NCBI GenBank assembly: GCA_964458565.1
Contig: CAYWJO010000021.1
Span: forward strand, 1-40,569
Reading direction: 5' to 3'
From: an uncultured archaeon
Lineage (GTDB): Archaea > Asgardarchaeota > Thorarchaeia > Thorarchaeales > Thorarchaeaceae
DNA length: 40,569 nucleotides
Shown piece by piece: positions 16,909 through 29,222 of the stretch (within the stretch, counting starts at the first letter, position 1; each line of letters begins with the position of its first letter). Position numbers and translations under genes: made by a program. Under the pieces are notes generated by a model, which was not told the DNA's origin, made no database searches, and saw only the letters and a list, made by a program, of their open reading frames with translations.

Positions 16909-17481
16909 TCATTCAATGAATGACAGAGTATTCCACTCATCAACACTTTTGATTACACCCTGAGTCAACTCATCTATCTGGCCATAGATTTTCTTAGCTG
17001 TGGTTGTCTGCAGACTTATTCGAACTAATTCTTGAAGTTCCTTTGCTTGCTCAAAAGCTTCCATAAATGTAATATCTTTGTGCCTTGTTCGGTAGACGAC
17101 TTCTCTGATGAAACCGTAAGGTCCAAGTGTTTGTAGCTTATCAGCATCAAAAACTATCTTAGCTTCAATTGTCTCAGCTTCATGAATGGTATCCAACTCA
17201 ACACATTTTACACAATGAACTAAACTCTCACGAAGCGAATCCTCAACTCCAATGCCCTTCAAAAATAAATCAACCTCTCCAGCTCTATTCGGGTGGTATT
17301 GATGTAAAAGAGCTCCAAGTCTACAGATTTGAACATCGGCACCTTCCAACGATGCTAGATACATCGCTAATTTCTCAGTCTTACGTGCATGATCCAAATC
17401 ATGTGTGTCGTCTAATGAGAGATAAATTTCTCGAGAAAACGATTCGATTTCTTCAACTTGCTTCTCAATAAGATTCGTCAT
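16909..17481 (-). CDS. HD-superfamily protein with variant HQ motif
   Basis: HDLDH...ALLHQ...VFDADKLQTLG. Confidence 0.75.
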   Translation of the reverse strand: MTNLIEKQVEEIESFSREIYLSLDDTHDLDHARKTEKLAMYLASLEGADVQICRLGALLHQYHPNRAGEVDLFLKGIGVEDSLRESLVHCVKCVELDTIHEAETIEAKIVFDADKLQTLGPYGFIREVVYRTRHKDITFMEAFEQAKELQELVRISLQTTTAKKIYGQIDELTQGVIKSVDEWNTLSFIE

Positions 17482-17577: not shown

Positions 17578-18615
17578 TTAGAATCGTTTTCTTCTCTTTG
17601 GATAGGAGCTATATTTTCTTCTAATCTCACTTGTCGCCCAATCACCGGTTACATCAATTGTTTCTAGAGACCTTAGAATATCAAACGTAATCCATCGTGA
17701 TGCTTCTGGATGCGGTTGATACTCCCAAATACCATATTCATTCCTCGAGTTCTCAATCCATTCAATTAAATCAATAACACGTTCATCTTCCTTGCTAGCT
17801 CCAATCCTCCCGCAGAGATCTAGTATAAGCGCCGGGTCAAATCTTGCATGATATGTTAGATGCCCTCGATGTTCTTCCACACCTACTAATCTAGCAATAT
17901 TGTATCCAAGATTTTTCCTATCTTTTGTTTCACGAGCTAAGAGTAAATCCAAAGCACGTTGAGCTGGTTTTGAAGTTCTTCTCTTTGGGTGAAATGCAAG
18001 ACAGGTAAGTGCCAAGGTCGTATTTGTTCTGCATCCCCACTTGGAGTGCGGCATTTTTCGATAACCCGCTTGATATCCGAAGACTTCACCAATCTTTCCA
18101 GTTGGCCATGCACCATCCTCAAGCCTCTGTTCTAAAAGCCAATCATACCCTCGTTCAGCTCTCTGGTCCTCTCCATGTCCAGCTGCTGCAATTCCCAGCA
18201 GAGGAATCGAAGTCTGTAATGGGGTCATCGTGTAACCGTTTCTCCTGTCTGAGATTCCATCATATGCCGAAGGCATTGCCCATGACCCATCCGGTGCCTG
18301 TTGAGAAAATAGATAATTGACACCTCTCTCTATACTTGGATGATGCTTCTCTAATCCCATATACGATAATCTCTGAAGTGCGAATGACGTAGTTCTAGTT
18401 GTGGGTCCCTGCGTTATTCCAGCTCTATCGATTTCCGTCCATGAGCCATCTTTATTCTGTGATGTTAATAATCCTGTAAGTAATCTATCTTCATCTTTTA
18501 GATTCTTAAGTTCGATAAGTTCTTCATCTTTTGATTTGCGCTTGAGAAGGTCCCTCAATACAAGATATCTGAGAGCTGGTGATCTATCAGCCAGTAATAG
18601 GGGTATCCATGTCAT
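17578..18615 (-). CDS. Prenyltransferase/squalene-cyclase-like alpha/alpha-barrel (QW-repeat) protein
   Basis: Repeats SQNKDGSW, QQAPDGSW, QRLEDGAW and SRNEYGIW; no DxDD motif. Its start overlaps the upstream stop (ATGA, 18612-18615). Confidence 0.75.
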   Translation of the reverse strand: MTWIPLLLADRSPALRYLVLRDLLKRKSKDEELIELKNLKDEDRLLTGLLTSQNKDGSWTEIDRAGITQGPTTRTTSFALQRLSYMGLEKHHPSIERGVNYLFSQQAPDGSWAMPSAYDGISDRRNGYTMTPLQTSIPLLGIAAAGHGEDQRAERGYDWLLEQRLEDGAWPTGKIGEVFGYQAGYRKMPHSKWGCRTNTTLALTCLAFHPKRRTSKPAQRALDLLLARETKDRKNLGYNIARLVGVEEHRGHLTYHARFDPALILDLCGRIGASKEDERVIDLIEWIENSRNEYGIWEYQPHPEASRWITFDILRSLETIDVTGDWATSEIRRKYSSYPKRRKRF

Positions 18616-21600
18616 TTATTCACCTCCAAGACTTCTCTGATGTAACTCGAAGTTGGCGAATTTGATTTTGCTATATCCTCTGGCGTTCCTGATGCGACTA
18701 ACTCTCCTCCTTCCGGACCTCCGCGTGGACCTAATTCAATGAGCCAATCGCAGGCAGCCAATATGTTTGTATGGTGTTCAATTACAACCACGCTATTACC
18801 AGCAGCGACTAGTTCGTGAAGTACACCAATCAATCTCTCTACATCTTCCAGATGTTGACCAACAGTAGGTTCGTCGAGAATATACAATGTTCCAGCGTCT
18901 GTTTTCTTCATGAGTTCTTGGGCTATCTTGAGTCGTTGAATCTCACCCCCAGATAGACTCACGCTGGGTTGTTTTAAAACAAGATAACCAAGTCCTACAT
19001 CAATAGCTGGCTTCAACCGTCTCGCAATTTCATCATCATATCCAAAGGTAGAGAATAGCTCTTCGAGAGTTAACTCATTCAATCTTGGGAAGGGTATTCC
19101 ATGGAGCTGAACCTCCCAGGATTCCTCTTTCCTCCCACTACCTTTACAAACCTCACATTCCGAATAGACATCAGGTAGAAATCCAAGCTCAGTTCTTGTT
19201 TGACCTGCTCCATTACAAACGTCACAGCTAGCCAGTAATTCTTTATCATTAATTTCGAGAGCATTAGCATCCTCTCCTTCAGCATAGAGTCTTGCAAGAG
19301 GTTTAAAGAGATCAAGAGCATTTCCAGGGTTTCTGATGCCTTTTCGACCTTGATCAAGAAGTACGACTCGGGTTGGAGCTCCCTTTATTGATTCATATTC
19401 ACCTGGGTCTACGGGGACATATGACACACTAGTAGAGAATTTAACAGGTGCTAGAGCTCTTCCTATAGTATCAAGCATGAGTGTACTCTTACCTGACCCA
19501 GATTTACCGCATATACCCACCAAGAGACCTAGAGGTATCTCAACAGTGATATCTTTGAGATTATTTTCTCGAGCTCCCTCAATAGTCATCCAGGCAATCG
19601 GTGTTCTTCGAGTTCTTGAAATCTCTGTGGTTCTCTTCCCACTGAGCCAATAACCAGTTATCGTTTCTGCTTTTTCAATCTCTTCAAGAGTTCCTTCTGC
19701 AACAATATGCCCTCCTTTGACTCCATGCAATGGTCCCATATCAACAATATAATCTGCTTTTTTGATTATGGATGGGTCGTGTTCCACAATAACAACGGTG
19801 TGTCCTTCGTTTCGTAATTCCTTAATTGCATCTACAAGATTATCAATCTCAGAAGGATGCATTCCACGACTTGGTTCATCGAGCAAGACTGTTAAAGCTG
19901 TAAGTCCACTTCCTAATAAAGATGCAAGAATTACCCTTTGAGCCTCTCCTGCTGAAAGCGTTGTAGATTGTCGTGCAAGATTCAAGTAGTTCAAACCGAC
20001 GTTGTTTAGAAATCTCAGCTTCTGCAAGAGAACCCTATAACTCTGTTCTGCCATACTATCTTGGAAATCTTTCTTTTTGTCTGAGAGTATATGTTCCAGT
20101 TTTTCTAAACCATACTGTTTTAATTCATGAATGGAGTGACCTACTAGTTTGATAGTTAATAGATGTGGTTTTAACCCTGAGCCATTGCATTCTGAACATA
20201 GTACTCTCTTGGTATAGGTACCACCGACATCCCAGTCCTTAACCCAATAATAGAATCCCGCCCACCTTCCTTTGCCTGTGACCTCTACACGTTCTCCTCG
20301 ACGCGTACCTAGGTAGGTAATTTCTAATGGGTCAGGATTTGGGTCTCCATAGAGGAATGCAGATTTCGCGTCTTCAGTTATATCATTCCAAATTGTAGTT
20401 CTTGAATCGAATCCATACCTTTCTCCAAGAGCATCTAGTGCTCCTGCAGCCCAGCTTGTTGGTTGGCAGAAATAGCCTTTTGGGAAATAGCCTGGTGAAA
20501 ACATGGCACCTCCACAAATAGGCTTCTCACCGTCTATAATCAGTTTACTTGGAACAGGCTCTTGAAAATGCCCTACTCCACTGCATCTATTGCAGGCAGA
20601 TGTATAGGTTCTCGGAGAGAAGTCTCTTGGACGCAGTGGAGGATATCTCGTTTCACAGTTGGAGCAGACCCATCCATTGTTATTCTGCATCAGAGTTCCG
20701 CAATTGTCACACTCTCTTTCTCCAATTCTAGAGAAGAGAATAGAAAGATGATTGTCTATTTCCGTTGCAGTTCCGACGGTTGATCTTGTTGCATATACAG
20801 CCCACCAACCACTTCCGGGATGGCGGCGAGACGAAATTGCGATTGCTACTCCTAATCCAGTTACTGAATCAACTGGAGCTTCAGGTCCTTCACTTGTCCC
20901 TTGTCTTTCATAGAGTGAAAGTGACTCGTAATACCTTCGTTCTGCCTCTGCTTGGAGAACATCCCTTACTAACGAACTCTTTCCGCTCCCACTTAGACCT
21001 GTGACCACCGTGATTTTCCTTTTCGGTATGTCAACAGTAACTCCCCGTAGATTATTTGCTCGTGCATTTTTAATCGATATCGATTCAGATGCTATTCGGC
21101 TGAGACTTTTGCTTTCATTGGGGTTCAACTTCTCCTCTGCTAGAAGTGCTTTCGATGTTAACGAGGGGTTCTCTTTCAAGAGTCCATTCAAAGGACCTTG
21201 ATAGATTGCTTCGCCCCCTTCAGGCCCACCTCCTGGACCAAGATCGACGATCCAATGGGCACTTCTAATCATATCGGAATTATGTTCAACTATTACTATT
21301 GTTGCATTAGAGTCTACAAGGTTATGGAGTACTGATAGCAAACCATCCAGATCTGCAGGATGCAAACCTGTACTTGGCTCATCTAAAATCAATAGACTGC
21401 TCTGGAGGTTTCTCTTGCCAAGGTATTTTGCTAGTTTAACTCGTTGGCTTTCACCTCCAGATAGACTTGGGGAAGGTTGACCAAGTTTGACATAACCCAA
21501 GCCAATTGTTACAAGTGCATCAAGTATCATTGTCGCTGATTTCTTCTTAGTTCCATTTAGCCTGCTTTCATTGTTAATCAATCTATTTACATCTTCGATG

Positions 21601-23501
21601 GATTGGTCATAGATATCTGCGATTGAAAATTCCTTACTACCAAACCTGATTCTTGCTTCTAGGACTTCTTCATTGAATCGTTTTCCATCACATTCATCAC
21701 ATTTTATCCAGAGGGATGGAAGATATTTCATCTTGACCTCTACAGCCCCCATTCCATTGCATTTCTTGCACGCGCCTTCAGGTCGGTTGAAAGAAAAGTG
21801 TGACCCAGAAAGTCCCGTTTCACTTGCGTAGAGGTCTCTGATGATGTCTGACAGCTTTGTGTATGTTGCTGGATTGGATCTAGGATTTTTACCAATTGGA
21901 CGTTGGTCAACAAGCACTGGTTTGATATTCTGTGTTATTAACTTAGTACAACCTATTGGTTTCCCATCCTTTAGACTTGGCACTAGGATATGTTCTACAA
22001 GAGTACTCTTCCCTGAACCTGATGGACCTGTTATTACTGTCATTCGTCCTTTTGGGATCTTGATATCGATATCTCTTAGATTGTGTTTTTTGGCTCCAAT
22101 TATTTCGATAAAGTCTCTTGGTTCCTCTCTCTCAGGTTTAGATCTAACTCTCTCTTGCAGACTAAAATACTGGCCTGTAATCGTATCAGATTTCCAGAGT
22201 TCTGCTGGAGTCCCTGAAAATGTTATTTCTCCCCCTTTCTCGCCTGCTCCTGGTCCGATGTCTAGAACAGTGTCAGCATATGCAGCTGCAACCCGATCAT
22301 GCTCTACATAAATAACAGGTCCTTGAAGCTGCTTGAATGCAGGTAGGAATTTTTCAACGTCTGAAGGATGTTGGCCAATAGTTGGTTCATCTAATATGTG
22401 GACAATATCTTCAAGCTTACTCGTGAGTGAAATGGCAATTCTAACCCTCTGCGCTTCACCGCGTGACAAAGTAGGGGCGGATCGATTGAGCTGTAGATAA
22501 CCTAGACCAACTGAACTAAGTGCATCAAGTCGAATCATGATTTCTTTGCGTAAGCGTTCTGCAGTTTTAGGGAGCCTCTCATCTTTGAATAGTATTGGTA
22601 ACTCACTCACACTTAATTCTAGGAGTTGATCTATTCTATGATTTGCCCAATGAACACTTGAAGCGAGTGGATGCATTCCGGAATTATCACATTTGTCACA
22701 TCCCTTCCCCTTACAATCCTTACACTTCATTTGGAAGTACTTGGGTTCGAGTTCTTTTATCCAGATTCCACAATGTGGGCAAATATTGGTTCTTGAAATC
22801 TTCTGTGTGATATCTGTTCCTATTATTGAGTAAGTAGAACATCCCAAAGATGCACCAAATTCTATGGCCTCTCTAATCTCTCTGACCTTTGGCTTAAGGT
22901 AACTCCCTAATACGATTTCGATATCATGTGATTCTTTTTGATTAAGCTGAATTTTGGAACTTTCCATTCCATCTATGATGATTGATTTCTCACCAAATTC
23001 TTGTTTTAGTAGATCAATCAAAGTGCGGTGACTTCCCTTAGCACCATGTACCAAAGTAGCTGTTAGTTTGGTCTGTTTTGTTCTTGACGATTTCTTTACT
23101 AGATCAACAATCTCATCGTCCTGGAGGATCGTGATTCCTTCTCCACAATCAGGGCAATGTCTTATTCCAAATCTCGCGAAGAGTAATCTGAGAAAGGGAT
23201 GGATACCTGAAGATGATGCTAGAGTGGAGTTGGGATTTCTATTCAATAGATTCTGGTCCACTCCGATAGTGGGACCAATCCCTGTTACCGACCCAACGTT
23301 TGCTGGAATCATTCTGGAACTTGTTCGACCCGATCTAAACAGCTCGAGAAACTTTCGTCGTGCTTCATGATATAGTGTGTCAAAAACGAGGGAGGATTTA
23401 CCAGAACCTGAAATTCCTGTGATTACAGTTAGACCGTCTCCTATATCACAGTCTATTGACTTGAGATTGTTCTCACTGGCTCCACGTATCTTGATATTCA
23501 T
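18612..23501 (-). CDS. uvrA: Double-length UvrA-family ABC ATPase (four nucleotide-binding domains)
   Basis: Four Walker A motifs (GISGSGKS, GPSGSGKS, GLSGSGKS, GKSGSGKS), four signatures (LSRGE, LSGGE, LSAGE, LSGGE), four LDEP Walker B motifs, (N/H)NL starts and multiple CxxC pairs. Confidence 0.9.
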   Translation of the reverse strand: MNIKIRGASENNLKSIDCDIGDGLTVITGISGSGKSSLVFDTLYHEARRKFLELFRSGRTSSRMIPANVGSVTGIGPTIGVDQNLLNRNPNSTLASSSGIHPFLRLLFARFGIRHCPDCGEGITILQDDEIVDLVKKSSRTKQTKLTATLVHGAKGSHRTLIDLLKQEFGEKSIIIDGMESSKIQLNQKESHDIEIVLGSYLKPKVREIREAIEFGASLGCSTYSIIGTDITQKISRTNICPHCGIWIKELEPKYFQMKCKDCKGKGCDKCDNSGMHPLASSVHWANHRIDQLLELSVSELPILFKDERLPKTAERLRKEIMIRLDALSSVGLGYLQLNRSAPTLSRGEAQRVRIAISLTSKLEDIVHILDEPTIGQHPSDVEKFLPAFKQLQGPVIYVEHDRVAAAYADTVLDIGPGAGEKGGEITFSGTPAELWKSDTITGQYFSLQERVRSKPEREEPRDFIEIIGAKKHNLRDIDIKIPKGRMTVITGPSGSGKSTLVEHILVPSLKDGKPIGCTKLITQNIKPVLVDQRPIGKNPRSNPATYTKLSDIIRDLYASETGLSGSHFSFNRPEGACKKCNGMGAVEVKMKYLPSLWIKCDECDGKRFNEEVLEARIRFGSKEFSIADIYDQSIEDVNRLINNESRLNGTKKKSATMILDALVTIGLGYVKLGQPSPSLSGGESQRVKLAKYLGKRNLQSSLLILDEPSTGLHPADLDGLLSVLHNLVDSNATIVIVEHNSDMIRSAHWIVDLGPGGGPEGGEAIYQGPLNGLLKENPSLTSKALLAEEKLNPNESKSLSRIASESISIKNARANNLRGVTVDIPKRKITVVTGLSGSGKSSLVRDVLQAEAERRYYESLSLYERQGTSEGPEAPVDSVTGLGVAIAISSRRHPGSGWWAVYATRSTVGTATEIDNHLSILFSRIGERECDNCGTLMQNNNGWVCSNCETRYPPLRPRDFSPRTYTSACNRCSGVGHFQEPVPSKLIIDGEKPICGGAMFSPGYFPKGYFCQPTSWAAGALDALGERYGFDSRTTIWNDITEDAKSAFLYGDPNPDPLEITYLGTRRGERVEVTGKGRWAGFYYWVKDWDVGGTYTKRVLCSECNGSGLKPHLLTIKLVGHSIHELKQYGLEKLEHILSDKKKDFQDSMAEQSYRVLLQKLRFLNNVGLNYLNLARQSTTLSAGEAQRVILASLLGSGLTALTVLLDEPSRGMHPSEIDNLVDAIKELRNEGHTVVIVEHDPSIIKKADYIVDMGPLHGVKGGHIVAEGTLEEIEKAETITGYWLSGKRTTEISRTRRTPIAWMTIEGARENNLKDITVEIPLGLLVGICGKSGSGKSTLMLDTIGRALAPVKFSTSVSYVPVDPGEYESIKGAPTRVVLLDQGRKGIRNPGNALDLFKPLARLYAEGEDANALEINDKELLASCDVCNGAGQTRTELGFLPDVYSECEVCKGSGRKEESWEVQLHGIPFPRLNELTLEELFSTFGYDDEIARRLKPAIDVGLGYLVLKQPSVSLSGGEIQRLKIAQELMKKTDAGTLYILDEPTVGQHLEDVERLIGVLHELVAAGNSVVVIEHHTNILAACDWLIELGPRGGPEGGELVASGTPEDIAKSNSPTSSYIREVLEVNK

Positions 23502-23703: not shown

Positions 23704-24300
23704 ATGGATTCTGAAAGGTTCTTAAAACAGATTGCATTCATCACAGAGATTGATAGACTCAAGAAGGTTATACGTCAGACCTCTCTTACGGATGCATCAC
23801 GACGGGAAAATGTAGCTGAACACTCATGGCATATCGCTCTCATGGCAATACTTCTTGCTGAGTATGCAAACGAATCATCTATCAAAATAGGTATAGTTGT
23901 GAAGATGCTTCTTATTCATGACATCGTTGAGATTGACGCTGGGGACACTTTTCTCTACGACGATGAAAATACTGAACTAAAATCTGAGAAGGAACTAAAG
24001 GCAGCAAAACGGATTTTTAGCTTACTACCTCACGACCAAGCTGAAATCTATCTTGCACTGTGGGAGGAATTCGAAGCAGCCATATCTCCTGAGGCTAAAT
24101 TCGCGAAATCCATTGACGCCTTACAGCCAATACTACTTGCCTATCAGAATGAGGGTTGGTCATGGAAGAAACATAAGCTTGAGAAACAACGAGTATTAGA
24201 AAAGAAGGAGTCCATGAAGCATGGATCCCAAGAGCTATGGAAATATACTCAACAACTGCTGGACAAAGCTGAACAACTTGGATTTTTTGAACATGAATGA
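23704..24300 (+). CDS. HD domain phosphohydrolase (YfbR/HDDC2-like 5'-deoxynucleotidase family)
   Basis: ENVAEHSW, LIHDIVEIDAGD, LWEEFE and EAKFAKSID. Confidence 0.88.
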   Translation: MDSERFLKQIAFITEIDRLKKVIRQTSLTDASRRENVAEHSWHIALMAILLAEYANESSIKIGIVVKMLLIHDIVEIDAGDTFLYDDENTELKSEKELKAAKRIFSLLPHDQAEIYLALWEEFEAAISPEAKFAKSIDALQPILLAYQNEGWSWKKHKLEKQRVLEKKESMKHGSQELWKYTQQLLDKAEQLGFFEHE

Positions 24301-24815: not shown

Positions 24816-25313
24816 TCAGATTGGTTCAAATACGAACGTACAGTTTTTGTCTCCCTTTGCTTGACAATAAATCTCTTCACACGATAAGCGTGTACCACAA
24901 GATTCCCAGAATACGCCAACAAAGAATCCTGCAAGGAAATGACATACAGGATTCTCTGATTTCCCATATGTTTCTGCAATGAACGATCTAGTGATTGTAA
25001 GATTTGCTACACATACACCATGACTCCTTACTGAATCTAAATCGAACCATCCCACACCTTGAGGTCCATAGAACTCTCCCCATTTAGTGATGAACTTCAT
25101 TTCTCTTTCTTCCCACTCACTTAGAAGTGCTTGAGTCGAACTTTTACCTGCTTCTATCCCTGCCTCGTAGATTAGAGCATCAGAACCTTCACCAACATCA
25201 GATTCTATAGTTTTCTGAATATTGGCAAAAGTTTCTGCACGAATTATTATCATGCGATGATTTTTCATGGCCCATAACGAATGCTCCAGAAATTTCTCAT
25301 TCTTCTCTGACAT
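24816..25313 (-). CDS. V4R domain protein
   Basis: YEAG..AG, G.GWF, PVCHFLAGFFVG and EEIYCQAKGDKNCTF. Confidence 0.88.
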   Translation of the reverse strand: MSEKNEKFLEHSLWAMKNHRMIIIRAETFANIQKTIESDVGEGSDALIYEAGIEAGKSSTQALLSEWEEREMKFITKWGEFYGPQGVGWFDLDSVRSHGVCVANLTITRSFIAETYGKSENPVCHFLAGFFVGVFWESCGTRLSCEEIYCQAKGDKNCTFVFEPI

Positions 25314-25318
25314 TGCTC

Positions 25319-25618
25319 CTATCTCCTCTTTCTTTTCCTCGTTTTCATGTTCAATGATGTAAGTTTCCCATAAAACTCTAGCAAGAGCTTGACTAAATCA
25401 TTATCAGTATTCAGACTATACACATGTGTAACTTTTCCAATCTTATCTTGAGTCACCAGATTCATACCAACCAGAGTTGGAATTGTACGTGTTACACTTC
25501 CTGGGTTTTTGTCGATTCGTCTAGCAATCTCTCTAAGGTTCAAAAGGGTGTCCGGATTCTCCATGAAGAGGTCCAGCACTAAAAGTTGTATTGATGGACC
25601 AAATAGCTCATTAAACAT
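25319..25618 (-). CDS. Winged helix-turn-helix transcriptional regulator
   Basis: LNLREIARRIDKNPGSVTRTIPTLV...IGK...YSLN; ends 5 nt before the V4R gene. Confidence 0.85.
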   Translation of the reverse strand: MFNELFGPSIQLLVLDLFMENPDTLLNLREIARRIDKNPGSVTRTIPTLVGMNLVTQDKIGKVTHVYSLNTDNDLVKLLLEFYGKLTSLNMKTRKRKRR

Positions 25619-25898: not shown

Positions 25899-26489
25899 AT
25901 GCGTGACCAAGATGATGGTAGCAAAATCATGAAAGCCGTGCTCATTGGAGACGGTGCCGTTGGTAAAACAAGTATGCGCCGTAACTACTTGGGAGAGGAA
26001 TTCATAGAGGGTCATCTTGCAACTATTGGTGTAGATTTAGCAACAAAGAGAATCGTTTTTGGTGAGGACATCGTTAAATTTGTGCTCTGGGATCTAGCTG
26101 GCCAGCCCTCTTTCAAACAAGTACGAGGTCATTATTACCATGGATCCAATGGGATTATCTTGGTCTATTCTGTCATTGACCGTGATTCATTCGACAATGC
26201 ATCCAAATGGCTTGTTGAAGCGTTCAATAATCTCAAGAAACTTCCTCCAACGATTATTGTAGCTAACAAAATAGACCTTCGTGGAAGTCCGCTTTACACA
26301 CAGCAGGTAAGCCGAGAGGAAGGAGAGGAGTTTGCTACTATCTTCACAGAGCGACTTAATGTTCCTGCCATCTTTATGGAAACCTCAGCGAAGACGGGAG
26401 AAAATATACGGGATGCATTTTCAGCATTGCTCAAGATGATGGAAGAGGAGGACGCAAATCAGGACGAACCAGATATCTATCGTCCCTAA
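25899..26489 (+). CDS. Rab-like small GTPase (Ras superfamily)
   Basis: G1 GDGAVGKTS, G2 TIGVD, G3 WDLAGQ, G4 NKID and G5 ETSAK. RabF-like segments IGVDL, KFVLW, YYHGS and LVYSV. No C-terminal Cys motif. Confidence 0.92.
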   Translation: MRDQDDGSKIMKAVLIGDGAVGKTSMRRNYLGEEFIEGHLATIGVDLATKRIVFGEDIVKFVLWDLAGQPSFKQVRGHYYHGSNGIILVYSVIDRDSFDNASKWLVEAFNNLKKLPPTIIVANKIDLRGSPLYTQQVSREEGEEFATIFTERLNVPAIFMETSAKTGENIRDAFSALLKMMEEEDANQDEPDIYRP

Positions 26490-26561: not shown

Positions 26562-29222
26562 ATGCAGGTTGTATTCCAAATGTCCGATACCACAACAAAA
26601 ACAGATTCTTCGCAGAAGAAAAGAATGACAATAGGTGTAGAAGGAATGCATTGCGCATCATGTGTTGCAACTATTGAAAAATCGCTTCGTGGACAGGATG
26701 GAGTTATCGGTGTGTCTGTAAGTCTGTTACAGGAAAAAGCAGTCGTGGAATATGATCCAACAAAAGTAGACCGCCTTCTTCTGGAAAAGGCTGTTGAATC
26801 CACAGGGTATCGGTCAAAGAGAAAACGAATGACTCTCACATTCGAGGAGCCTCTCGATAAGAATTCATGGTCTGAAGTCAAACAACTTCTTCTTAAACTC
26901 GAAGGCATCATTTCAGTGAATGATTTCTCATCCACAGGGAAGCTAATCTTGGAGTATGATGAAGACCTTACGACATTCAAGATAGTGCGAAAGACTCTGA
27001 AGAATGTAGGTTTCAGCGTTTCTGAGAGTGGAGCTGGTGATTCTGACCGAGAGAGCCTAGCGCGGGAAAAGGAAATCCGATTCTATTCTCGTCTTCTAGC
27101 TTTATCTGTTATTCTGACAATTCCAGTCACACTGATTATGTTTGATGTGGTCATGCTTTCTGGTGTCGATCCTAAGATATTGATGTTTATCCTAACAACT
27201 CCAGTTCAATTCATAGCGGGATACCCATTCTACAAGGCAAGTTTAGCAGGTCTTAGACATGGTAAAACCAATATGGACACACTTATCATGCTTGGAACAA
27301 GTGTTGCATATTTCTATTCAGTCACAACTACTTTCGTTCTCACTAGTTTCCCATCCTTCTATGATACATCCGCTATGTTAATTTCCTTCATCCTTCTCGG
27401 TAGAACTCTTGAGGCAATGGCGAAGGGTCGTACATCCAGAGCTATTCGGTCATTAATGGATCTCCAAGCTAAGGTCGCTACTGTTTTTCGTGACGGACAA
27501 GAAATTACTGTCCCTATTGAAGACGTTGAGGTTGACGACATACTTCTCGTTAGACCCGGGGAAAAAGTACCAGTTGATGGAATTGTTATTGATGGGAGTT
27601 CATCAGTAGATGAATCAATGATAACTGGTGAGTCGATACCTGCTTCAAAGGGTGTAGGTGACTCTGTGGTAGGTTCTACAATTAACAAGAATGGAGTTTT
27701 ATACATCAGAACTGAAAAAGTTGGCAAAGATACTGTTTTGTCACAGATTGTTCAGATGGTTGAAGATGCCCAGGTGAATAAACCTCCAATTCAGAGAAAA
27801 GCTGATCAAATTGCAGAAGTTTTTGTACCGTTTGTGTTGGCAGTTGCGGCAATTACATTCGTGGCATGGATATCAATTGGATTGGTGGATTGGACCCGAG
27901 CGCTTAGTTTCACCATAGCAGTACTTGTTGCAGCATGTCCATGTGCACTAGGTCTTGCTACGCCCACTGCGATAATGGTGGGAATTGGAAAGGGGGCACA
28001 GCATGGAATTTTAATCAAGACTGGTGAGAGCCTCGAGCAGATTCCTAATGTTGATACAATCATTTTTGACAAAACTGGCACGCTAACCGAAGGACGTCCA
28101 CGAGTTACAGACTTGATTTCTGGTGGAAACTGGTCCTATAATGATGCGCTGGGTTTGATAGCATCAGTTGAGAACAAGAGCGAACATCCCCTTGCTGAAG
28201 CAATAGTTGAACATGCAAAAGAGAAGCATTTACAACTATCTGAATCAACTGAATTTCTTAATGAATCTGGGAGAGGTGTAAGAGCAGAGGTCAATGGTCA
28301 GGTAATTCTTGTAGGCAGTGATAGGTATCTAAGAGAAAACAATGTGGATATTGATGAAATATCTATTCATAGTGAACTCTTGCAACAATCTGGCAAAACT
28401 ACAATCTATGCCGCGGTTGATAGTTCTCCACTAGCAATTATTGCCATTGCCGACCCTGTGAAACCTACATCTATGCAAGCAATTCGTGAGTTATCAAAAA
28501 TGGGACTTGATGTCTGGATGATTACAGGGGATAAGAAAATCACTGCTGATGCTATTGCGAAGAGTATTGGAATAAACAATGTTATGGCTGAAGTCTTACC
28601 GGCTGAAAAAGCCGAGAAGGTGAAAGAACTACAGGATGATGGTCGCATTGTTGCTATGGCTGGAGATGGAATCAATGATGCTCCTGCACTTGCACAGGCA
28701 AACGTTGGTATTGCTCTTGGTAGCGGAACAGATGTTTCAGTAGACGCAGGTGATATTGTTCTGGTCAATGATGATCTCTTGGATGTTGTATCGGGTATTC
28801 AACTAGGAAAACAAACAATGTCAAAAATAAGACAGGGTTTCTTCTGGGCGCTTATTTACAACATGATTCTTCTTCCAATCGCTGCAGGTGTTTTGTTTCC
28901 TTTAACTGGACTGGCTCTTCGTCCTGAAATTGCTGGACTTGCGATGGCTCTATCGAGTGTGAGTGTAGTAACAAATGCTCTTCTTCTAAATCGATTCAAT
29001 CCGACTCAAGCACGTATTAATACAGAGAGCCCTTCTAATACGAATGAAGTGAAAACCACTGTGGCAGTTGATCCCATTTGTAAGATGGATGTTGAGATCG
29101 AAACTGCAGAGCTAGTAAGTGAATACAAAGGAAAGATGTATTATTTCTGTAATCCATATTGCAAGACAACATTTGACGAAAATCCAGAGCAATACAAAGA
29201 TCAAGACTATAGAGGCAATTAA
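26562..29222 (+). CDS. copA: Copper-translocating P1B-type ATPase with N-terminal HMA and C-terminal YHS/TRASH domain
   Basis: [33 protein letters not shown] and MALSS motifs, plus DPICKM...YYFCNPYC. The true start may be the ATG at 26580. Confidence 0.93.

Follow-up and report, generated by a model that had tools for sequence, protein, structure and literature searches.

A conserved single-chain UvrA-family ATPase with complementary accessory-domain loss in its two halves, encoded in tandem with an alpha/alpha-toroid protein

UvrA, the ATPase of nucleotide excision repair (NER), is the textbook example of a symmetric dimer that loads UvrB, and the origin of the asymmetry in damage recognition and hand-over is debated. 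In the canonical class I proteins (TIGR00630/NF001503; structures 2r6f, 3uwx, 3pih, 3zqj and 9gxk), each protomer combines two ATP-binding cassette (ABC) modules and Zn modules 1-3 with two accessory domains, a UvrB-binding domain and an insertion domain. The UvrA-UvrB interface pairs the UvrB-binding domain with domain 2 of UvrB and signature II of the second protomer with UvrB domain 1b (PMC12796330, PMC3025350), and R216/E222 substitutions in E. coli UvrA disrupt the interface with UvrB and Mfd (PMC3025350). The class II proteins, such as D. radiodurans UvrA2 (2vf7), DrrC and Ecm16 (7sh1), act without UvrB or UvrC and have been reported to lack the first Zn motif (PMC9328131). A further, chlamydial type (NF001885/PRK00635) carries tandem units in a single chain. 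Here we describe a fused, double-length UvrA encoded on a contig of an uncultured archaeon of the Thorarchaeaceae (Asgardarchaeota; contig CAYWJO010000021.1 of assembly GCA_964458565.1, positions 1 to 40,569; this whole stretch of 40,569 nucleotides is hereafter the window). Its two halves have lost complementary accessory domains, and its gene overlaps that of an alpha/alpha-toroid protein, with which it forms a conserved two-gene module.

The UvrA gene (P0001) is one open frame of 1629 aa at 18612..23501 of the window, stop codon included; it and all of its parts given below lie on the minus strand. The initial annotation, made from the letters of the window, had taken it for a fused pseudo-dimer with four complete ABC modules, and motif mapping bears out the four modules. 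Walker A motifs at residues 29, 492, 835 and 1332, ABC signatures at 345, 680, 1182 and 1516, Walker B motifs at approximately 369, 703, 1205 and 1539, and four H-loops are all intact. There are six Zn modules, three per half. In half 1, the CxxC pairs at C116 and C241 (Zn module 1) enclose ~121 aa, and those at C260 and C268 (Zn module 2) stand back to back with 4-5 residues between them; in half 2, the pairs at C931 and C946 (Zn module 1) are spaced by 11 aa, and those at C970 and C1102 (Zn module 2) enclose ~128 aa. The cysteines C116, C241, C260, C931, C970 and C1102 map to window positions 23156, 22781, 22724, 20711, 20594 and 20198, in agreement with the positions and spacings first read from the sequence. 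A C-terminal Zn finger is present in both halves (C578/C601 and C1426/C1449).

Half 1 (residues 1-785; 21147..23501) comprises a first nucleotide-binding domain (NBD-I) that carries a UvrB-binding-type domain, followed by NBD-II and Zn finger 3, and is without an insertion domain. The UvrB-binding-type domain (residues 120-240; 22782..23144; PF17760) is bracketed by Zn module 1 (C116, C119, C241, C244), and a collapsed Zn module 2 (C260, C263, C268, C271; 22689..22724) stands where the insertion domain is absent. An inter-half linker (approximately residues 786-806; 21084..21146) leads to half 2 (residues 807-1629; 18615..21083), in which the NBD-I is without a UvrB-binding domain, its Zn module 1 being collapsed (C931, C934, C946, C949; 20655..20711). 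Here, Zn module 2 together with the insertion (DNA-binding) domain spans residues 970-1105 (20187..20594) and is followed by NBD-II and Zn finger 3. Alignments with solved structures agree with this assignment: half 1 aligns with chain residues 24-302 and then 407-939 of Geobacillus UvrA (2r6f), skipping the insertion domain, and half 2 aligns with residues 3-128 and then 249-915 of Thermotoga UvrA (3pih), skipping the UvrB-binding domain; the coordinates on the TIGR00630 profile contain the same gaps. The docking-type domain of half 1 scores 29.3 bits against PF17760 (cut-off 23.3) as against 119.2 for the genome's own UvrA, and the insertion domain of half 2 scores 22.1 bits against PF17755, just below the cut-off, as against 87.4. 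By these scores and alignments, both accessory domains are homologous to the canonical ones and strongly diverged. The AlphaFold2 model of half 1 (pLDDT 89.4) has its best match in the PDB in 3uwx_A, the UvrA of the UvrA-UvrB crystal structure (TM score 0.80). The insertion domain had also been called aromatic-rich, a description that falls away, as its share of W/Y/F (20 of 128 residues, 15.6%) lies within the range of the genome's canonical UvrAs (10.7-15.6%).

The layout is a family trait. A search of 5.8 billion proteins recovered more than 120 full-length relatives (1613-1660 aa, 54-63% identity), which are named by source as Thorarchaeota (the closest), Lokiarchaeota, Bathyarchaeota and Chloroflexi/Anaerolineae. 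We aligned 117 of the full-length relatives, and in every one the complementary loss of accessory domains is fixed; 24 Zn cysteines, four Walker A lysines, four Walker B Asp-Glu pairs and four H-loop histidines are invariant or nearly so. The UvrB-binding-type insert in Zn module 1 of half 1 measures 119-134 aa and the spacer in Zn module 2 is 5 residues in 117/117 members, while in half 2 the Zn module 1 spacer measures 12-22 residues and the insertion domain in Zn module 2 measures 122-141 aa. Even the linker stretch (783-807) is 25-26 residues long in 110 of the 117. Public databases annotate the proteins as "excinuclease ABC subunit A" or "ATP-binding cassette domain-containing protein" and the partner as "hypothetical," and the literature searched on class III, fused, tandem or Asgard UvrA describes class I and class II (IIa/IIb) UvrAs but, as far as we found, neither this layout nor the toroid partner, although an earlier mention may exist. 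Shorter matches, collected in a search for split forms, are mostly fragments at contig ends. In one metagenome-assembled genome (L022:214-6117), the halves have been called as two open reading frames (ORFs), one of 800 and one of 838 aa, with the toroid gene downstream of them. The two ORFs share 47 nt in different frames, so that a frameshift or a sequencing error is more probable than a natural split.

Double-length UvrAs as a whole are more diverse than their annotation implies. We searched 1.84 billion cluster representatives exhaustively with half 1 using HMMER and mapped the accessory domains on each match among the 150 best clusters with a profile of the genome's class I UvrAs. Writing B for a UvrB-binding domain, I for an insertion domain and a hyphen for a missing one, first unit before second, these best clusters include BI+B- (40), BI+BI (28), -I+-I (22), BI+-I (4), B-+BI (3), B-+B- (1) and -I+BI (1) proteins. 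The B-+-I type described here accounts for 9 clusters, plus fragments. As mapped, double-length UvrAs thus comprise at least eight domain architectures, of which B-+-I is one. The only curated model of a double UvrA is the chlamydial NF001885; none of five fused-UvrA representatives scored against it (0/5) reached its cut-off, and the Thorarchaeal protein itself scores 825 bits against a cut-off of 3054, which sets it apart from the chlamydial-type proteins with which the initial annotation had proposed to compare it.

A midpoint-rooted tree of single units (665 core columns) places all first halves of the B-+-I proteins in one clade and all second halves in another, each with support of 1.0. 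The inner topologies of the two clades are congruent, which indicates one old fusion. The two halves are 32.5% identical to each other and thus less alike than either is to the class I UvrAs of the same genome (35-37%); therefore, they did not arise by recent internal duplication. The deep branches of this tree are weakly supported, unit 1 of P0369 is misplaced on a long branch, and we have refrained from assigning the halves to ancestral UvrA classes. Besides the fused proteins, the searches returned single-unit UvrAs of ~838 aa (P0240, P0231 and P0232; L023:4001-6517; one of them named Aminicenantes), which are ~100 aa shorter than class I and have PF17760 but not PF17755 in precomputed Pfam lists. 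This suggests that they lack the insertion domain and represent an unfused "B-" type; in the unit tree they do not cluster with half 1 of the fused family.

The fused protein is not the cell's NER UvrA. A check for separate uvrABC genes, proposed at the outset, found three canonical uvrA genes along with uvrB and uvrC: the genome has a uvrB-uvrA-uvrA-uvrC cluster (contig C15:264-11887, with uvrB at 264-2210) and a third full-length uvrA on contig C50. The halves of the fused protein remain below the class I cut-offs, with 659.5 and 645.5 bits against TIGR00630 (cut-off 729.8) and 662 and 648 bits against NF001503 (cut-off 1147); only the summed score of both halves passes them. The canonical cluster is itself of some interest. 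The same uvrB-uvrA-uvrA-uvrC layout occurs in a second genome (G122 contig C94:7746-17254), and the two tandem class I paralogs of the C15 cluster are 47% identical. The first of these paralogs falls with the first units of BI+BI fused UvrAs in the unit tree, and the second falls with their second units. These archaea may, from this grouping, use a heterodimeric UvrA formed by tandem paralogs, an unfused counterpart of the double-length proteins.

The second gene of the module (P0241; 17578..18615, minus strand) encodes a 345-aa protein and begins in an ATGA overlap with the stop codon of the fused UvrA. Its Pfam match is to the squalene-hopene-cyclase C-terminal repeat (PF13243, 58 bits), and its AlphaFold2 model (pLDDT 84.6, pTM 0.87) is an alpha/alpha toroid. 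The same 4-bp overlap of the two genes recurs on a Bathyarchaeota chromosome, a Chloroflexi contig and a Lokiarchaeota contig, and the other neighbors differ among these loci. Fused UvrA and toroid are a conserved, translationally coupled two-gene module. The toroid family is as conserved as the ATPase (52-74% identity, 343-346 aa), and half 1 of the fused family is present in 26 of 29 toroid-bearing genomes, mostly directly upstream on the same contig by coordinates; among the 3 without it, at least one miss sits at a contig end. In one Bathyarchaeal genome (G262:C1:1154854-1157486), the toroid gene stands beside only a 616-aa frame that matches the C-terminal part of UvrA and may be a decayed copy. 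Among other architectures, no toroid gene lies downstream of the -I+-I, BI+-I, B-+B- or BI+B- fused UvrAs (one representative each, 0/4). A 315-aa gene downstream of the B-+B- protein was considered as a possible relative and rejected (hhalign probability 0.2%).

In a Foldseek search, the toroid model matched 1sqc, 7xru and C3d at TM scores of ~0.45-0.5 with ~14% identity. It thus shares the alpha/alpha-toroid fold and QW-like motifs with squalene-hopene cyclase and other class II terpene cyclases, as well as the fold of the complement thioester domain. It differs from the class II terpene cyclases in that its 345 aa form a single barrel and its C-terminal tail is basic and conserved, and we found neither a DxDD nor a DDxxD motif in it. 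The matches in the protein atlas are only to unnamed "squalene-hopene cyclase C-terminal domain" clusters.

How the two proteins might fit together is suggested by complex prediction. Given residues 1-455 of the ATPase (NBD-I and the docking-type domain) and the toroid, each with its own family alignment, the prediction reached an ipSAE of 0.72 (0.74, 0.71 and 0.72 in individual runs), the best of three controls being 0.00. In a benchmark, 58 of 80 solved complexes and 2 of 110 mismatched pairs scored as high, a comparison that is rough, since our own alignments were used. At least 78% of the contacts are common to the runs, with a partner pLDDT of at least 77. We know of no solved UvrA-toroid complex, and the score is therefore unlikely to reproduce a known structure. 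The predicted interface comprises residues 150-161, 164-165, 168, 188, 194, 218-220, 238-239 and 245-247 of half 1 and the N-terminal helices 3-42 of the toroid, together with its residues 293-304 and 329-331. In both proteins, conservation is highest there, at G156, S157, H158, T160, L161, L162, L165, L219 and G220 on the ATPase and at L7, L8, S12, L15, R16, L18, L23, E32, E35 and L36 on the toroid. The core of the predicted docking face (residues 150-168; 22998..23054; G156 S157 H158 x T160 L161 L162 x L164 L165) is the most conserved stretch of the whole UvrB-binding-type domain. As in the UvrA-UvrB interface, the docking platform would be a globular domain on the NBD-I Zn-module stalk; however, the predicted ligand is an all-alpha toroid rather than a helicase, and the contacts center on strand 150-155 and helix 159-169, not on the helix equivalent to that bearing R216 and E222. 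In the family, that helix is variable: at the position of R216, members have a gap or varying residues, and at that of E222, 53% have Q and 15% have E.

The genomic distribution bears directly on whether the retained domain holds UvrB. We surveyed 121 Asgard genomes from the phylum of the window and 151 Bathyarchaeia genomes, the latter all at least 80% complete and from the class of a genome that has the module on a single 1.68-Mb contig (G121). In the Bathyarchaeia, the module is present in 9 of 151 genomes and uvrB in 26 of 151, and the two sets are disjoint; uvrB and uvrC were each found in none (0/9) of the module-bearing genomes, which include G121, and a full class I uvrA was found in only one of the nine. 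Their fused genes are open frames of ~1610-1630 aa wherever the contig allows, and all aligned full-length members, including those named Bathyarchaeota, retain the UvrB-binding-type domain. A domain kept in genomes without uvrB must serve some use other than holding UvrB. In the Asgard sample, the toroid gene is present in 21 of 121 genomes, and all 21 have uvrB; this carries little weight, because uvrB is present in 96 of the 121 anyway.

These data allow one rival explanation to be weighed, namely that the fused protein is an NER damage sensor whose single docking domain loads one UvrB and feeds UvrBC incision as a hard-wired A2B1 complex. The homology of the retained domain to the UvrB-binding domain, the proximity of the half-1 model to the UvrA of 3uwx and the 21/21 co-occurrence in Asgard genomes speak in its favor. 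Yet the last of these is tempered by the general frequency of uvrB, the Bathyarchaeal genomes have the module with no uvrB or uvrC, the equivalents of the interface residues R216 and E222 (PMC3025350) are not maintained, the domain has drifted to about 29 bits where the genome's canonical UvrA retains 119, and that genome already has a dedicated uvrB-uvrA-uvrA-uvrC cluster. We therefore consider this explanation unlikely. The initial annotation's "UvrB-type docking domain" accordingly stands as a statement of homology, whereas UvrB as its ligand does not, the predicted ligand being the toroid.

Our preferred interpretation, to which we would give about an even chance, is that the module encodes a pair that works without UvrB and UvrC: an asymmetric UvrA-type ATPase in one chain would sense DNA and would present or position the toroid docked on it. 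The ATPase would be hard-wired in its asymmetry, with four intact ABC sites, one UvrB-binding-type domain and one insertion or DNA-clamp domain. The noncatalytic toroid would bind the UvrB-binding-type domain of half 1 with its conserved N-terminal helices, so that this domain would have been re-used to hold a new partner. The ATPase would scan or sense DNA in the manner of UvrA and the class II proteins, with DNA probably bound on only one of its sides, and would position the toroid at the recognized site. There, the toroid might act as an adaptor, or its cavity might accommodate a lesion or a ligand bound to DNA. Of these elements, the invariant architecture, the gene coupling and the occurrence in genomes without uvrB and uvrC are observed and the docking is predicted, whereas the pairing of the halves within one chain, the DNA substrate and the role of the toroid are inferred. 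Should the halves pair head to head as in canonical UvrA, the partner on half 1 would come to lie against signature II of half 2, a region that has lost its DNA-binding residues and carries the acidic segment specific to the family; this suggests a division of labor in which one side serves DNA and the other the partner.

A more specific and somewhat less probable version of this interpretation has three elements. First, the UvrB-binding domain would have been re-used for a nonhelicase toroid. Second, the pair would constitute a UvrB/UvrC-independent pathway of DNA surveillance or DNA clearing, which gene transfer would have carried between Asgard archaea, Bathyarchaeia and Chloroflexota. Third, the DNA side would consist of the insertion domain of half 2 and signature II of half 1, and the partner side of the docking domain of half 1 and the acidic signature II of half 2. 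A further mark of asymmetry is found at signature I, the part completing the "distal" ATP site, which is mostly LSGGE elsewhere; in this family, half 1 has a fixed LSRGE and half 2 a fixed LSAGE.

Several points weigh against the UvrB-independent pair. One concerns the basic patch that precedes Zn finger 3. The E. coli UvrA R712A R722A R724A R730A protein, listed as a DNA-binding mutant, has no detectable global NER or transcription-coupled repair (PMC3025350). In half 1, the R712 equivalent, R555, is kept in 123 of 126 units, whereas R722 is deleted, R724 is replaced by T and R730 by H; in half 2, the four equivalents are mostly L/V, K/Q, L and Q or a gap, within a conserved acidic segment (residues 1405-1425; 19227..19289) at the site of the canonical patch. 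The other fused classes and class I retain R or K at these positions. The half-2 alignment contains indels and is uncertain in detail, although the change of charge is clear; as aligned, the basic patch is eroded in both halves and acidic in half 2. With three of the four arginines lost in half 1 and nearly all four in half 2, canonical duplex-DNA binding is less assured. In addition, no effector chemistry can be named for the toroid, because it has no recognizable active site. As all 21 module-bearing Asgard genomes have uvrB, co-operation with UvrB may occur there. The docking is a matter of model confidence, and the contact sites on the ATPase were sampled within residues 1-455 only. Finally, the family is known from sequence and models, and no member has, to our knowledge, been studied experimentally.

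Another explanation, which was raised in outline by the initial annotation and to which we assign a similarly low probability as to the NER sensor, is that of a stand-alone ATPase of the class II (DrrC/Ecm16) kind that removes DNA-bound drugs, the toroid being merely co-expressed or serving as a sink for the released hydrophobic ligand. In its favor, half 2 has the domain layout of class II, class II proteins need neither UvrB nor UvrC (PMC9328131), the toroid shares its fold with terpene cyclases, whose ligands are polycyclic and hydrophobic, and the patchy, transfer-like distribution is as expected of resistance genes. However, biosynthetic or efflux genes stand beside the module in none of the four loci that we read (0/4), and half 1 retains as a conserved element the very UvrB-binding-type domain that class II has lost. 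The predicted docking, with its clean controls, speaks against mere co-expression, and the erosion of the basic patch also counts against this explanation.

The state of that patch raises a different alternative, which we rate as quite improbable: the substrate might not be duplex DNA in the canonical groove but another nucleic-acid structure or a protein complex. The loss of arginine equivalents in both halves of this family, set against their retention as R or K in the other fused classes and class I, and the inactivity in NER of the quadruple alanine mutant (PMC3025350) are consistent with it. Nevertheless, both C-terminal Zn-finger hairpins and the one insertion (DNA-clamp) domain are strictly conserved, R555 persists in nearly all half-1 units, and the indels leave the half-2 patch uncertain. 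The least probable of the alternatives, and only slightly behind the last, is a module for defense or against mobile elements, with the UvrA-like ABC ATPase as the sensor of foreign DNA: its distribution across archaea and bacteria is patchy, the PADLOC models mad3 and mad8 match NBD-II of each half (mad3 E = 8e-57 to 1e-67) and a large DNA methyltransferase lies near one locus (L013), but the PADLOC matches span a single ABC domain, the toroid has no PADLOC match, and a nuclease, another effector or conserved defense neighbors are found in 0/4 loci. Nor do the genes appear to belong to the MADS defense system, as there is no full-length mad3 match and there are no defense neighbors in the four loci. 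As an observation in its own right, the matches to mad3 and mad8, at residues 470-759 and 1311-1613 with E values down to 1e-67, are strong enough that these MADS components appear to be relatives of the UvrA NBDs.

The HD-domain genes that flank the module in the window (16909-17481 and 23704-24300) were considered as further parts and set aside, as they are not conserved in three other loci. The second of these, a divergent HD_3 (YfbR-like) gene, separates the fused UvrA from a small winged-helix (IclR/MarR-like) gene and a V4R-domain gene (24816-25618, minus strand), which lie ~1.3 kb upstream of it on the same strand; V4R domains bind small hydrophobic ligands. Farther along, a Ras-family small GTPase gene (25899-26489, plus strand; PF00071, E = 7e-42), of a kind unusual in prokaryotes, adjoins a gene for a copper-type P-type ATPase (26562-29222).

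The family is a natural, hard-wired asymmetric UvrA that may reveal what one insertion domain and one docking domain suffice for. It may also show that partners besides UvrB and Mfd can use the docking domain, and it may reveal the role of a UvrA-type ATPase in organisms without UvrB and UvrC. The family further offers a first functional handle on a conserved, unannotated family of toroid proteins. More generally, the fused UvrAs form several distinct architectures, all of which annotation pipelines label "excinuclease ABC subunit A" or "ABC domain protein."

The fused protein can be set beside the described systems. With class I UvrA it shares the same core in each half, that is, two ABC modules and Zn modules 1-3. 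However, the UvrB-binding domain that every class I protomer carries is present in diverged form in half 1 only, and the insertion domain, likewise present in every class I protomer, is diverged and limited to half 2. It further differs from class I in having two units per chain, an eroded basic patch and a coupled toroid gene and in occurring without uvrB and uvrC. Half 2 matches the layout of class II, with an insertion domain and no UvrB-binding domain, and class II also acts independently of UvrB and UvrC, like the module (PMC9328131). Yet class II proteins are homodimers of ~750-850 aa without a UvrB-binding domain, whereas the fused protein, at 1629 aa, keeps a docking-type domain in half 1, where, unlike in class II, the insertion domain is missing. 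It also keeps all Zn module 1 cysteines in both halves, although class II has been reported without this motif, and has a dedicated partner gene. With the chlamydial-type double UvrA it shares the tandem units in a single chain but falls far short of that model. Among the double UvrAs at large, the B-+-I family is set apart by having exactly one of each accessory domain, on opposite halves.

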